Shown here: piece after piece, positions 34,787 to 39,383 of the stretch
Layout: each line of letters begins with the position of its first letter
How positions within the stretch are numbered: position 1 is the first letter of the stretch
Assembly (NCBI GenBank): GCA_965602015.1
Contig: OZ271918.1
Location: forward strand, 3,040,001 to 3,104,000
DNA: 64,000 nucleotides
Source: Salinispira sp.
GTDB lineage: Bacteria > Spirochaetota > Spirochaetia > DSM-27196 > Salinispiraceae
Reading direction: 5' to 3'
The notes under the pieces: model-generated
Database searches by the model: none
What the model was told of the DNA's origin: nothing
What the model saw: only the letters and a program-made list of their open reading frames with translations
Translations under genes and position numbers: made by a program

Positions 34787-34806
34787 CTTTGGTTTACACT
34801 GGAGAC

Positions 34807-35352
34807 ATGAATACAAAAGGAAACACCCTGTCTGTCCTGCTGCGCATTCTGGACGTCGAGCAGAACAACCTGCAACGCTCGGACTCAAAGGCGACGGCCC
34901 TGCTCTCGACCCTCGGGGTCTTTATGGTCTTCTTCATCGTGCATTTCGATAAGATCACCATAAATGAAATCTCCCTGACGCTGGTCTTTTTTTATTTTTT
35001 CAGCGCACTGACCACGATATTCTGTCTGTTAAAGGTGATCAGTCCCAAAATGGTAAACGTTCCCGAAGAGCCTGATCTCAAGGATGCCCGATTCTCCATC
35101 AACCCGACGTTTTTTGGCGGAATTTCCCGATTCAAAACTCCCGGCAACTACGCCCGCTACCTCGAGGACCTAGCGGAAGATGATCATGCGGTATATACCA
35201 TGTTCAGCAAGCAGCTGTTTGCCATTGCAAAAATCAATATGCGAAAAAACAAGTGGCTCAAGCGGGGAATGAACTCGTTTATCGCCGCTATAAGCTTTGA
35301 GTTATTTTCGATAATCACTGTCTACGTGGATTTCGCATTCTCAAAAGCATAA
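34807..35352 (+). CDS. Pycsar-effector-like (DUF5706/PycTM) membrane protein
   Basis: QRSDSKATALL (xDxKA motif), two TMs, xFFGGI loop, IAKINMRKNKWLKRG, then a third TM. Confidence 0.75.
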   Translation: MNTKGNTLSVLLRILDVEQNNLQRSDSKATALLSTLGVFMVFFIVHFDKITINEISLTLVFFYFFSALTTIFCLLKVISPKMVNVPEEPDLKDARFSINPTFFGGISRFKTPGNYARYLEDLAEDDHAVYTMFSKQLFAIAKINMRKNKWLKRGMNSFIAAISFELFSIITVYVDFAFSKA

Positions 35353-35405: not shown

Positions 35406-36488
35406 ATGGCACGCAAGTACAATTTTTACGCCGGACCTTCGACTCTGCCCGAGGAAGTGCTCAAGGAACTTGAGGCAGATTTCGTTGATTACAAGGGATT
35501 GGGTCTCTCCCTCGTTGAAACCAGCCACAGAAGTCCGGAGTACGATGAAGTGCATCAGTCGGTCATTCAGGGTGTCAAATCACTCCTCGGTTTGAGCGAT
35601 GATTATGAAGTGGTTATGATGGGAGGAGGAGCCACCCTTCAGTTTTCGGCTGTCCCCATGAATCTTCTGGGTGATAAAAAGCGGGCTGATTATGTAATCA
35701 GCGGTACCTGGGCAAAAAAAGCCCTGGCTGACGCCAAGGTATACGGCGAACCAGTGGTTCTTTGGGACGGGAAGGACGGTAATTATACCAGTCTACCGGC
35801 AGCGGATTCTGTCCGCCCCGGGAAAGACAGTGCCTATCTGCATATTACCAGCAACGAGACAATTAACGGGGTTCAATGGAAGGATTTCCCCGATGTGGAT
35901 ATTCCGCTGGTGGCAGACATGTCATCGGACATTCTCTCGCGCCCCCTACCTGTCGATCGCTTCGGTTTGATCTATGCAGGAGCTCAAAAAAACCTGGCCC
36001 CCGCCGGGGTTACCCTGGTCATTATCCGCAAGGATCTGCTTGATCGGGCAGGGGACAATGTGGGCGCCTACCTGAAATACAAGACCCACGCTGAGAAGGA
36101 CAGCCTCTACAACACGCCGCCGGTGTTCTCGATTTGGGCCATGAGCCGGGTACTTAAATGGATTGAGCGGAACGGCGGTCTGGCGGGCATAGAGAAAATC
36201 AATGCGGAAAAAGCCGATATGCTCTACCGGGCCATCGATGAGGCCGATGGTTTTTACAACTGCCCCGTTGATGCCTCGTACCGTTCAAGCATGAACGTGG
36301 TTTTCACGTTGGCCGACGAAGAGCTGCAGGGCGAGTTTCTCAAGGGCGCAGGTAACCTGGGAATGCTCGGCCTCAAAGGCCACCGATCGGTGGGCGGGTG
36401 CCGCGCTTCGATATACAACGCCATGCCGATTAGCGGAGTACAGGCCCTTGCGGAATACATGAAGGATTTCGCCGCGAAAAAGGGCTAA
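35406..36488 (+). CDS. serC: Phosphoserine aminotransferase
   Basis: NFYAGPS, SHRS, DMSSDIL, YAGAQKN, LYNTPP and GHRSVGGCRASIYN. Confidence 0.98.
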   Translation: MARKYNFYAGPSTLPEEVLKELEADFVDYKGLGLSLVETSHRSPEYDEVHQSVIQGVKSLLGLSDDYEVVMMGGGATLQFSAVPMNLLGDKKRADYVISGTWAKKALADAKVYGEPVVLWDGKDGNYTSLPAADSVRPGKDSAYLHITSNETINGVQWKDFPDVDIPLVADMSSDILSRPLPVDRFGLIYAGAQKNLAPAGVTLVIIRKDLLDRAGDNVGAYLKYKTHAEKDSLYNTPPVFSIWAMSRVLKWIERNGGLAGIEKINAEKADMLYRAIDEADGFYNCPVDASYRSSMNVVFTLADEELQGEFLKGAGNLGMLGLKGHRSVGGCRASIYNAMPISGVQALAEYMKDFAAKKG

Positions 36489-36547: not shown

Positions 36548-36576
36548 TTGACGACAGGTTCGGGCGGTATTAGAAT
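36548..36576 (+). promoter_or_regulatory. Strong sigma70-type promoter with no long ORF downstream
   Basis: TTGACG-17-TAGAAT. Confidence 0.75.
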
Positions 36577-36582
36577 TTAACT

Positions 36583-36837
36583 GTTGATGAAGATTTCATC
36601 AGGATTCCAGGTTCCCGGGAGAACCCGTAAGTTCCCCGAGGAAGGGTCCAGAACATACTGCAGGAGGGCTTATGGCAACTCCACCTAAAGCAGACGGGCC
36701 TGACAGTCCTTGATTCTCAATCGGGACTGCCGATGCCCCGTGTCAGACAAATCCATCAATGTCTGTGACATTGATTTAAGAAGCCCGGGAACATGATCCC
36801 GAGGTTAAGGCCGGCAGTTAGTGCCGGCCCTTTTTTT
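36583..36837 (+). ncRNA. Candidate stand-alone structured RNA (~255 nt), family not recognised
   Basis: Bracketed by a promoter and a terminator. Closing helix GTTCCCGGG (36611-19) / CCCGGGAAC (36784-92) encloses several hairpins. Confidence 0.55.
36809..36837 (+). terminator. Intrinsic terminator
   Basis: GGCCGGCA-GTTAG-TGCCGGCC-C-TTTTTTT. Confidence 0.9.
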
Positions 36838-36970: not shown

Positions 36971-38032
36971 TTATTCCGCAAGCAGTGGGCCGAGAAAATC
37001 CAAGTAGGTTTTCCAGGCATTGTCGCCGTAATTTCCGGCCTGGACCCAGGCAGCCGGTATGTCCCTGCTTCTGAGGAAATCCCGAACGAGGGTATTTCTT
37101 GCAAGCATCTGACGCCGGTTTAGTTTGAGAAGTTGGGTGGAGGGCAGCTGATCTTCTTCAAAAGGATCGGCTCCTGCTACGATAAACGCGATATCAGGGG
37201 TGGCTCGCCCCCACTGCTTTTCGCTTCGAGACACGAGCTCGCTCAGGCCGACGGCCAACCGCGAGTTGTACGTACCCTCTTCGCCGGCATCGACTGCAAT
37301 ATCGATATCGCTGGATATCCAGGCCGGATCCGAGTCATAGCCCGGAACCTGCCGCCGCTCGTCAAGCGGCCAACCTCGGGCCATATGGATGCTTAAGGCG
37401 ATGACGCCCTGGTCTCCCCCCTGATTCAGGCGCTTGACCAGATCTGCGGTTCCGTCACCCTTGTGGGCGTCAATATCAATAATCCATGCCGACGGCTTTT
37501 CCCCGCCTCCCGCTAGGCGCTCCCTGGCGGCCAGAGTGTCGCTGTAAAAGCAAAAACCCGAACCGAAGTCCCAGTGAGCATGGTGAAATCCTCCACCAAA
37601 ATACCAGGCTTCACCAGTTTCGAGAGCGAGCTCAGCGGCGCGGATAACCCCGCCGCCTCGCCGACGGACAATCTCGAATAGCTCGGATAATGGCCTGCTG
37701 GCTGCCGAGGGTGCATAGCGGTAATAGTCGCCGTTGCGGTCAATCAGCTCAAAGGTGCGAAGGATTTCGGTCTCCAGCTCGGCTCCGCCGGCGAGAAGCC
37801 GCCGTATGTAATTGGGGCAATGAACCGCGGCCAGCTCCGCTTCGCTGGGGGCCTTGGCCAAATCGGAGTGATACCAGGACGGCATGGATTCTCCGGAAGG
37901 CGGAATTGCGCTTTCCCCGGACATATGCAAGAGCTCCTTCATGGTTTTGAGCGCATTATTAAATGATATGGGGATATCTATACCGTAATCCGCCACATCC
38001 AGGCGGTCTGATGGATCGTAAATAATTTCCAT
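36971..38032 (-). CDS. Zn-dependent deacetylase (histone deacetylase family)
   Basis: GGFHHA, GFCF, DIDAHKGDG, GADPFEED and GNY. Start at ATG 38032. Confidence 0.92.
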   Translation of the reverse strand: MEIIYDPSDRLDVADYGIDIPISFNNALKTMKELLHMSGESAIPPSGESMPSWYHSDLAKAPSEAELAAVHCPNYIRRLLAGGAELETEILRTFELIDRNGDYYRYAPSAASRPLSELFEIVRRRGGGVIRAAELALETGEAWYFGGGFHHAHWDFGSGFCFYSDTLAARERLAGGGEKPSAWIIDIDAHKGDGTADLVKRLNQGGDQGVIALSIHMARGWPLDERRQVPGYDSDPAWISSDIDIAVDAGEEGTYNSRLAVGLSELVSRSEKQWGRATPDIAFIVAGADPFEEDQLPSTQLLKLNRRQMLARNTLVRDFLRSRDIPAAWVQAGNYGDNAWKTYLDFLGPLLAE

Positions 38033-38039
38033 GGGATTC

Positions 38040-39383
38040 CTATGTGCTTTTTTCCCCCGCTTCAGAAGACCACTGAACCGGCATACCGGTGGCGTCAATG
38101 AGATCGCGCCACAGACTGCTTTCCGGATCTACGTGATTCCGGGTTCCCGTGGCAATTCTCATGGGAACGTGTACGAAGTGGTTGTTCAGCAGGCTTACCA
38201 GTATCTTCGTTTTTCCCGCCATGGCCGCATGCACCGCATTTGTTCCCAGACGCGAACAGTACAAGCTGTCCGTCGGTATGGCCACCGATGACCGGATGAT
38301 ATAGCTGGGATCTATGTATTTTATGTTCACCGGGAAATTAATACTTGAGAAATGATCCGCCAATCGTTTTTTGAGGTACACGCCGATATCCCCCAGAAGC
38401 TTGTTTCCCGAGGCATCGGTTCCCTCCTGAGCATCCAACAGCCGCTGTCCGGCACCTTCGGCCACGACGATAACCGCATGGTTTCGCCGTTCAAGGCGCT
38501 TCTTCAAATGCTCGAAGAGCCCTCCGGGACCTTCGAGGGAAAACGGAACCTCGGGAATAAGTACATAATTGACATCATGACTCGCTATCGCAGTGTGGGC
38601 GGCAATAAAACCGCTCTCCCGGCCCATGAGTTTTACCAGGCCGATACCGTTTTGCGCTGAATGGGCTTCCTGATGGGCGGCGAACACCGATTCAGTAGCC
38701 CGGACCACCGCGGTCTCGAACCCAAAGCTCTTTTCGATAAAGCTCAAATCGTTGTCTATGGTCTTGGGAATACCGACCACGGCAATTTTGAGCCCGCGTT
38801 TCTCGATTTCCTCCGCCAGGGCAAGGGCCCCTTTTTGCGTCCCGTCGCCCCCGATGGTAAAAAGCATATTGATATTCAACCTTTCCAGGGCGTCGACCAG
38901 ATCTTCGGTGCGGTCCCCGCCCCCGCGCGAGCTGCCCAGCATTGAGCCGCCTATGCGATGAATATCATCCACCACATTGGGGTTTAATTCGATGATCGGC
39001 TCGCTGACAGTTCCCAAAAGACCGTTGTACCCGAACCGAATGCCGGTTATGCGCTGCACTCCGTAGCGGTACCAGAGGGTCCGAACCACCGAACGGATTA
39101 CATCGTTGAGCCCGGGACACAGGCCTCCGCAGGTCATGATTCCCGCCCGCACATGCGCCGGCTGGAAATAGATCATCTCCCGGGGACCCGCCTTCTGAAG
39201 CGTTCCGTAATCCTCGTAGTTTCTGCTTTCCCCGTCTTTCTCAACTTTAACATGATAGAGGATTTCCTCGTCATCGCTCACATAGTTTGCTATAGTGTCA
39301 CCATAGATCTTCGAAAAGACGATGGGCGACTGAATTTTCGTTTTTCCGAGATCGGGAACGGAAAAATCGTAGGTTTCTGCCAT
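38040..39383 (-). CDS. pfkA: 6-phosphofructokinase (probably ATP-dependent)
   Basis: TCGGLCPGLN, GGDGT, PKTIDND, MGRESG and IDPSY. Confidence 0.93.
   Translation of the reverse strand: MAETYDFSVPDLGKTKIQSPIVFSKIYGDTIANYVSDDEEILYHVKVEKDGESRNYEDYGTLQKAGPREMIYFQPAHVRAGIMTCGGLCPGLNDVIRSVVRTLWYRYGVQRITGIRFGYNGLLGTVSEPIIELNPNVVDDIHRIGGSMLGSSRGGGDRTEDLVDALERLNINMLFTIGGDGTQKGALALAEEIEKRGLKIAVVGIPKTIDNDLSFIEKSFGFETAVVRATESVFAAHQEAHSAQNGIGLVKLMGRESGFIAAHTAIASHDVNYVLIPEVPFSLEGPGGLFEHLKKRLERRNHAVIVVAEGAGQRLLDAQEGTDASGNKLLGDIGVYLKKRLADHFSSINFPVNIKYIDPSYIIRSSVAIPTDSLYCSRLGTNAVHAAMAGKTKILVSLLNNHFVHVPMRIATGTRNHVDPESSLWRDLIDATGMPVQWSSEAGEKST

Follow-up and report, generated by a model that had tools for sequence, protein, structure and literature searches.

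Known sensors of proline codons control the gene that lies behind them, and the dual-function small RNAs SgrS/SgrT, SR1/SR1P, and VcdRP carry conserved active peptides and seeds. Stalled ribosomes also have consequences for nucleases, in that Rae1 acts at them and RNase J is blocked by them. To the best of the authors' knowledge, few conserved regulatory RNAs are known in spirochaetes. EF-P has been described as acting with the second proline in the P site (PMC11611912, partial text), a stall at prolines as being able to favor a terminator or an antiterminator (PMC5021804, partial text), and the released attenuator RNA rnTrpL as acting in trans (PMC7968998, partial text). Here, a locus from a Salinispira genome (the source genome, G000) is compared with these systems. 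Positions refer to the window, the whole stretch of 64,000 nucleotides that was analysed; other genomes and loci of the comparison carry G and L numbers, respectively, and families carry f numbers.

The initial annotation of the locus had described an orphan structured RNA of about 255 nt, purely non-coding, with its own promoter and terminator and separate from the next gene. Much of this stood. The promoter TTGACG-17-TAGAAT and the canonical terminator were both recovered (Table 1), the HDAC-family gene downstream is convergent such that the RNA is not its leader, and the sequence is consistent with a stand-alone structured RNA gene. Two points required revision: relatives occur in 29 families of the class Spirochaetia, so the gene is no orphan, and a 13-codon open reading frame (ORF) had been missed. 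The statement that the RNA is not a tRNA, SRP RNA, tmRNA, or RNase P RNA was upheld, as all four were located elsewhere in G000. The Rfam search that had been proposed as a check gave no match at the gathering score in the whole window; six weak matches were all far below the cut-off, and no match above the cut-off lay over the element in 20 member loci. It should be noted that the source region contains two promoter-like sites compared to 1.7 in shuffled sequence, so that a single such site is no better than chance. Support for the source promoter therefore comes from its relatives: 91 of 95 family members yielded a promoter-like site, as did 23 of 24 in-frame loci chosen by the search tool versus 3 of 121 viral controls. 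Before serC, a 187-aa membrane protein is encoded at 34789-35352; it is also encoded in G001, has no NCBIfam match, and may resemble Pycsar-type transmembrane effectors.

Table 1. Predicted features of the source RNA gene and its flanking genes, in window coordinates.
Feature	Position	Strand	Remarks
serC, upstream neighbor	35406..36488	+	context only
Sigma-70-type promoter, TTGACG-17-TAGAAT	36548..36576	+	10 of 12 consensus positions matched; predicted start near 36583
5' hairpin P1a	36585..36601	+	optional in family; similar hairpin in G001 and G002
5' hairpin P1b, closing loop CCGUAA	36602..36649	+	family-specific, optional; G001 and G005 have this loop on altered stems
Shine-Dalgarno GGAGG	36663..36667	+	can pair weakly with the Pro-Pro codons
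13-codon minigene, MATPPKADGPDSP-stop	36672..36713	+	
Pro-Pro codons CCA CCU	36681..36686	+	predicted pause site
Hairpin P2	36696..36738	+	from the 10th base after Pro-Pro onward; 3' arm 36727-36737 complementary to terminator 5' arm
Hairpin P3	36755..36775	+	both strands of the stem differ in G001 and G002
Bulged hairpin P4	36782..36806	+	directly 5' of terminator; GUGAG before P4 in many families
Intrinsic terminator P5	36809..36837	+	GCCGG stem (36809-36829), loop AGUNAGU in source order, U run
HDAC-family gene, downstream neighbor	36971..38098	-	convergent; context only

The predicted transcript folds with a z-score of -3.84, and none of 200 shuffled sequences was as stable. The 5' hairpin TGATGAA/TTCATCA reported earlier is present in the predicted fold as P1a. 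Of the four internal arms reported with it, the third and fourth are recovered as P2 and P3, the first pairs otherwise (in the hairpin with the CCGUAA loop), and the second is the start region of the minigene. A 9-bp helix closing the structure (36611-19/36784-92) had also been proposed and was rejected: the two stretches are complementary, but the ensemble probability of the helix is about 0.01, and a competing local hairpin (36787-36802) reaches 0.99. Further, G001 and G002 fold the corresponding stretch locally, and the leader is shorter than 30 nt, too short for such a helix, in 18 of 91 members. Forcing the helix costs the fold just 2 kcal/mol, and energy by itself therefore does not settle the matter. 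A tally of leader-to-3' pairing (32 of 91) takes in diffuse pairs and mis-called starts (L003, L263) and was set aside. As modeled, then, the family is a string of local hairpins, not a multi-arm fold closed by a 9-bp helix. The six GGA motifs that had been pointed out are in line with composition, which predicts 6.7, and all six are at least partly paired.

Among the 29 families that carry the element, 28 have a Pro-Pro member and one more has a Glu-Pro member. BLAST against 61 genomes recovered the element from two congeneric genomes and its terminator from another family, and each locus found in this way carries a Shine-Dalgarno, an AUG, and an in-frame Pro-Pro. A pattern built on the terminator matched 33 of 99 genomes of the source order and 42 records among 185,579 species; these included 36 spirochaete-titled records, one Bacteroidetes-titled record, and five unrelated records without the element. 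The Bacteroidetes-titled contig (L059, JAAAOB010000003.1) is near-identical to the G002 locus and is probably a binning error. Of 401 genomes in the class, 121 matched a pattern that required neither an ATG nor a terminator, some of them by chance owing to high GC content, and a covariance model added members with a different P2 sequence. The carriers include the cultured, free-living Alkalispirochaeta alkalica (L065). Nothing complete was found outside the class when model R2 was run over 151 genomes of the phylum: it gave 10 matches, the five outside the class being bare terminators or lacking the minigene, and a match in G203 was antisense within a long ORF. In metagenomes (2 of 64 parts scanned), 41 of 118 matches were in frame, which is the chance level, and only two loci, sharing one sequence, have every part. 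None of 121 viral matches combined an in-frame ATG with a promoter or terminator. Family f23 gave 0 of 44 by pattern and 0 of 7 by model, and f37 gave 0 of 3 by model; as the model scores few candidates in each genome, the counts do not signify absence. The gene is usually single-copy and has moved between loci without its neighbors. Two near-identical copies lie 5.6 kb apart in one genome (L273; G142:C1:1104238, 1109888), and a weak match to TD-1 RNA (L307:2073-2193; 44 bits, cut-off 64.5) lies near the element in G445.

Statistics on members refer to 95 of 98 examined; outside the 95 are L044, L308, and L313, which have no Pro-Pro, and L117 and L292, which have another terminator. Loci dropped as chance matches or non-members were L030, L043, L050, L057, L060, L076, L081, L094, L099-L103, L104, L109, L115, L116, L119, L120, L280, L281, L284, L285, L288, L290, L291, L294, L316, L321, L325, L326, L330, L331, and L334. 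Members are kin and raw counts overstate their independence; counting one member per family gives the same picture.

On sequence evidence, the Pro-Pro minigene is the most conserved feature of the family and bears the signature of translation. From 5' to 3', members comprise a promoter, a variable leader (often with a hairpin), GG(A/G)GG, a start codon, 0-7 codons, CCR-CCN, 10 nt, P2, a linker with P3, P4, an A run, and the terminator; the conserved core is the order of Shine-Dalgarno, AUG, 0-7 codons, Pro-Pro, P2 10 nt on, two hairpins, and terminator. The predicted RNA measures 165-326 nt from its predicted start (median 216, 81 members). GG(A/G)GG lies 4-9 nt ahead of the start codon in 87 of the 95 members, and the start codon is ATG in 89, GTG in 5, and TTG in 1. 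Of 87 members, 81 have the AUG in the reading frame of Pro-Pro and 5 have an out-of-frame ATG; the intervening whole codons number 0, 1, 2, 3, 4, 5, or 7. For the first proline, 94 of 95 members use CCA or CCG, and none uses CCU. Among 30 loci chosen by the tool with the pattern that lacks an ATG, 24 are in frame, none is out of frame, and 21 have both a promoter and a terminator; viral controls for the same pattern (n = 121) have the ATG in frame in 2 and out of frame in 16. A further 29 loci were picked by eye, mostly for an in-frame start, and are thus a biased sample for frame. The search by terminator only gave Pro-Pro in frame at 36 of 37 spirochaete-type loci and Glu-Pro at one.

The encoded peptides (9-47 aa) are not conserved beyond Pro-Pro. 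Since the peptide is unconserved and the distance from Pro-Pro to P2 is conserved, the working state is presumably a ribosome at Pro-Pro. The stop codon lies inside P2 in 51 and between P2 and the terminator in 44 of the 95 members, and in none does the ORF run into the terminator. Most members have V, K, Y, D, or E directly behind Pro-Pro, and these are not the strongest stalling contexts. EF-P was present in 5 of 5 genomes tested; that of G000 has a PGKG loop, and an EpmA-like gene lies 1.2 kb away, both being named by sequence motifs. The Shine-Dalgarno can pair with the proline codons around a purine mismatch, with a flanking pair in 55 of 87 members versus 43.8 in shuffled sequence, and part of the conservation of the proline codons may lie at the RNA level via this pairing, perhaps tuning initiation. 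Two loci, L117 (G112) and L292 (G313), combine a Shine-Dalgarno, a Pro-Pro minigene, and P2 with another terminator, and P4 is lacking. They are the only two cases with CCU as the first proline codon, lie upstream of thioredoxin and recG, and may be cis versions or chance. In L272, L273, L274, L282, L283, and L258, the 3' half contains another Shine-Dalgarno-like word with AUA behind it in place of AUG, resembling a duplicated and decayed start module.

The spacing between Pro-Pro and P2 is a second signature. A hairpin begins 9-11 nt past Pro-Pro in 44 of 50 members that were not selected by a P2 pattern, compared to 22 of 200 control Pro-Pro sites in ordinary genes; counting a single member from each family gives 23 of 28. 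The 10-nt register persists where the sequence of P2 has been remodeled. In an alignment that had been fitted to the structure, 98% of cells retain the pairs of P2 and terminator, and 10 of the 12 pairs show changes on both sides. GCCGG occurs in 49 of 59 terminators and 28 of 50 P2s not selected by that pattern, and GCCGG stems are found in 23 of 229 terminators of the source genome. The terminator loop AGUNAGU is near-invariant across the source order and free elsewhere in the class, and is perhaps protein-binding. The P3-P4 stretch taken alone has a mean z-score of -2.44, with values below -1.65 in 26 of 32 (every third member), and GUGAG precedes P4 in 33 of 95 members versus 8.4 expected. 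A 3' domain with its own promoter and without the minigene occurs in G423 (L314/L328) and G222 (L317/L332), where a promoter, P3, a GUGAG-like P4, and a terminator are present and a minigene and P2 are not. A short version in G116 (L308) keeps the Shine-Dalgarno with a decayed ORF.

Neighbors were tallied by hand at 62 loci whose next feature received a family or tRNA call. Downstream, 44 of the 62 are convergent and 18 are co-directional, the latter in 13 unrelated families. A magnesium transporter was found at none of the 62, and no proline gene was among the 18. Genes upstream include serC, pgi, uvrC, and gnd: serC also lies upstream in families f2, f7, f8, and f9, the gene often sits between pgi or serC and pfk in the source order, and in four other families the upstream gene is usually uvrC. 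In family f45 (L302, L306, L133, L256, L257), the element faces convergent tandem arrays of 3-6 tRNA-Val(UAC) genes. Owing to the A run in front of it, the terminator would function in both directions, and, taken together with neighbors that are mostly convergent and unrelated, this argues that the gene is free-standing.

Because a downstream gene cannot be the output, the output is assumed to be the RNA itself, as for rnTrpL. The authors' tentative preference, held with some doubt, is for a leader-peptide attenuator without an operon, in which a pause of the ribosome at Pro-Pro decides whether the RNA is released. The parts established by comparing sequences are a promoter, an in-frame AUG, Pro-Pro, the fixed 10-nt register, the hairpins, complementarity of P2 and terminator, and the lack of a shared downstream gene. 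A ribosome would start at the AUG and, if EF-P activity or proline translation is poor, would pause with the second proline in the P site. Its leading edge would open the first pairs of P2, the P2 3' arm would capture the emerging arm of the terminator, and polymerase would then read through into a probably unstable, mostly antisense transcript. With efficient translation, the ribosome would run off, P2 would refold, the terminator would form, and a discrete RNA would be released. The 3' domain of that RNA (P3, GUGAG-P4, P5) would act in trans, for which a protein is a likelier target than a pairing RNA. This domain is the likely effector; G423 and G222 carry it without a minigene, and G116 carries it next to a decayed one. 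Capture is feasible because P2 and the terminator usually share GCCGG/CCGGC, which allows the P2 3' arm to pair with the terminator 5' arm. Provided that a running ribosome always leads to transcription termination, which the scattered stop codons imply, a fixed register is called for only if the stalled ribosome opens the P2 5' arm and leaves the 3' arm free, as in classical attenuation.

Folding of the nascent RNA gave mixed results on such a switch. The pairing of P2 with the terminator arm exceeded 0.5 in 12 of 95 members when 10 nt after Pro-Pro were blocked and in 73-85 of 95 when 13-19 nt were blocked; it formed in 88% with the RNA's own arm versus 44% with the arms of other terminators. 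In the 22 members with a remodeled P2, the own arm pairs better than permuted arms (p = 0.016, uncorrected for kinship); over all 95 members the same comparison is not significant (p = 0.13). The rebuilt P2 of the source genome and of G001 keeps a 9-bp complement to the terminator (-14.6 and -17.6 kcal/mol, respectively), pairing is poor in several remodeled members (L309, L312, L315) and weak in G002, and the predicted antiterminator helix is mostly 5-6 bp. The abundance of GCCGG stems among the terminators of the source genome and a residue behind Pro-Pro that is not tuned for strong stalling likewise speak against the attenuator reading. With the second proline in the P site, P2 starts at +14, and the fold flips between 10 and 13 blocked nt. 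The ribosome channel is described as holding 11 nt from the first P-site base (PMC7282821, partial text). The interval of 10-13 nt coincides with the uncertain edge of the ribosome, and the direction of the P2-opening step would depend on where that edge lies. A switch operating in the finished RNA was rejected, as the terminator persists (mean 0.9) with the P2 5' arm blocked.

The main rival, a strong one though less probable in the authors' estimate, is that the finished RNA is a ribosome trap or decoy that loads and holds one 70S ribosome, the complex being the working unit. Three brakes would hold the ribosome in place, namely the Shine-Dalgarno close by, Pro-Pro, and a hairpin where the mRNA enters its channel, and the complex could store ribosomes, titrate EF-P or tRNA-Pro, or present a stalled ribosome to a factor bound to the 3' hairpins. 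Such a trap needs no downstream gene and no read-through, and so fits the neighbors. Pro-Pro follows the AUG by 0-3 codons in 87 of 95 members, and the terminator stays formed in the finished RNA in 86 of 95. Moreover, one codon past Pro-Pro, P2 stands at +11, within the 11-12 nt at which hairpins are described as blocking the A site (PMC7282821, partial text). However, a trap leaves the shared GCCGG stem of P2 and terminator unexplained, P2 is often just 5-6 bp, and versions without the minigene exist. Neither Rae1 nor RNase J was found in the five genomes searched for each, one of those searched for Rae1 being a non-carrier, making cutting by Rae1 and shielding from RNase J unlikely.

An improbable reading is that of a dual-function sRNA of the SgrS, SR1, or VcdRP kind, with an active M-x-x-P-P micro-peptide and base pairing to mRNAs. 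The strong Shine-Dalgarno and AUG, the frequent location between pgi or serC and pfk in the source order, and the AGUNAGU loop conserved across that order would be in keeping with it. Against this, the peptides have only Pro-Pro in common, and word counts gave no class-wide single-stranded seed, the best 5-mers between P2 and the terminator being UUUUU and GUGAG (about 33 of 95 each). Hfq was not found in 5 of 5 carriers tested, and pairing via Hfq is thus unlikely. The glycolytic neighbors are confined to one order, whereas uvrC is usual in four other families. Distinctly improbable, too, is regulation in cis or antisense, in which read-through would turn on a co-directional neighbor or repress a convergent one: the switch geometry and the 18 co-directional neighbors fit this, but most neighbors are convergent, the co-directional ones are spread over 13 unrelated families, and the element has left its neighbors behind in moving between loci.

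A CsrA-binding or 6S-like non-coding RNA with an incidental minigene is very improbable: csrA occurs in 40 of 40 carriers versus 29 of 40 non-carriers, 58 of 91 members have a GGA in the leader ahead of the Shine-Dalgarno where 42.7 would be expected, and G000 has no Rfam 6S match (RF00013), but the reading-frame signature cannot be incidental, GGA is at chance (4.97 versus 4.46 per RNA) with a mean of 0.66 unpaired and at least three unpaired in 3 of 95 members, a rod with a central bubble is lacking (a rod-like isomer exceeds 0.5 in 6 of 95), and separate 6S matches occur in 16 of 40 carriers (14 over the cut-off) and in G166. The divergent 6S RNA and the CsrB-type sponge that the initial annotation had entertained both fail on these numbers. 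CsrA may, in turn, control the ribosome site of the minigene itself. RelA/SpoT, present in 40 of 40 carriers and 35 of 40 non-carriers, does not tell the two groups apart. The 6S site of G166, behind rplT and two short genes, is syntenic with G000:C1:2057256-2057408 (L343), where there is no room for 6S. In 13 genomes of the source order tested, no Rfam match to 6S was found, and 6S may be lost or much changed there.

The attenuator without an operon and the ribosome trap have a parked ribosome in common. Nearly an even call, in the authors' judgment, is that the family is a class-wide, operon-free RNA gene that parks a ribosome on Pro-Pro, acting either as a sensor whose own release would report on EF-P or proline translation in trans or as a store or titrator of ribosomes and EF-P, as 6S is for RNA polymerase. 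The RNA is by inference attenuator-like, yet a regulated operon, the defining feature, does not follow it, and a literature search found no precedent for an attenuator without one. The RNA has no Rfam family, and no description of it was found in the literature searched, subscription journals being mostly outside that search; in the available part of the PMC8632094 supplement, Leptospira biflexa was the sole match to four spirochaete names, and the main text of PMC11109978, also available in part, names no spirochaete. Either form of the parked-ribosome reading, if true, would be a kind of regulator found described nowhere. The retention of the gene across 29 families despite relocation suggests that it plays a basic part in spirochaetes, both free-living and gut-dwelling. 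Unlike known proline-codon sensors, the spirochaete RNA has no gene behind it to control; if the reading is true, the state of proline translation (EF-P, tRNA-Pro, perhaps magnesium) would be signaled by a free RNA or a parked ribosome.

Several described systems resemble the spirochaete RNA in part. In Bacillus subtilis, short ORFs in spyA (S1025) and bmrX also park a ribosome, behind which Rae1 cuts, and Rae1 is described as cutting at a Ser-Pro-Pro stall without EF-P as well (PMC12407103, partial text); in contrast, Rae1 (PF05991) was not found in the five spirochaete genomes tested. 6S RNA (RF00013) is of similar length, stand-alone, and usually present in one copy, but it has another fold, whereas the spirochaete RNA has a minigene and no match to the 6S model, and a true 6S occurs elsewhere in 17 carriers. 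Dual-function sRNAs likewise have their own promoter and terminator and a small ORF in the 5' half; the conserved peptide and seed found in them were not seen in the spirochaete RNA, and a review of such sRNAs includes, in its available part, no spirochaete and no proline case (PMC12310071). Closer in what is sensed are the MgtL and MgtP leaders of Salmonella mgtA and mgtCBR, in which proline codons of a short ORF sense proline translation or EF-P (PMC5021804 and PMC11611912, partial texts). These are cis leaders of magnesium-transport genes, and mgtL works via Rho access, whereas the spirochaete RNA has an intrinsic terminator and lacks a magnesium transporter among its 62 identified neighbors. 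Attenuators of the trpL/hisL type and rnTrpL of Sinorhizobium meliloti resemble it in having an intrinsic terminator, a short ORF in which control codons stand in tandem, a fixed distance from these to the first hairpin, and an antiterminator, which is a predicted one in the spirochaete RNA; translation of the spirochaete ORF is likewise predicted, from its sequence signature. They differ in that an operon follows, whereas the neighbors here are mostly convergent and unrelated, and in that peTrpL has a function of its own, whereas the spirochaete peptide is unconserved. In the spirochaete RNA, the control codons are Pro-Pro and two extra hairpins lie between P2 and the terminator; as in rnTrpL, efficient translation would release an RNA that acts in trans (PMC7968998, partial text).
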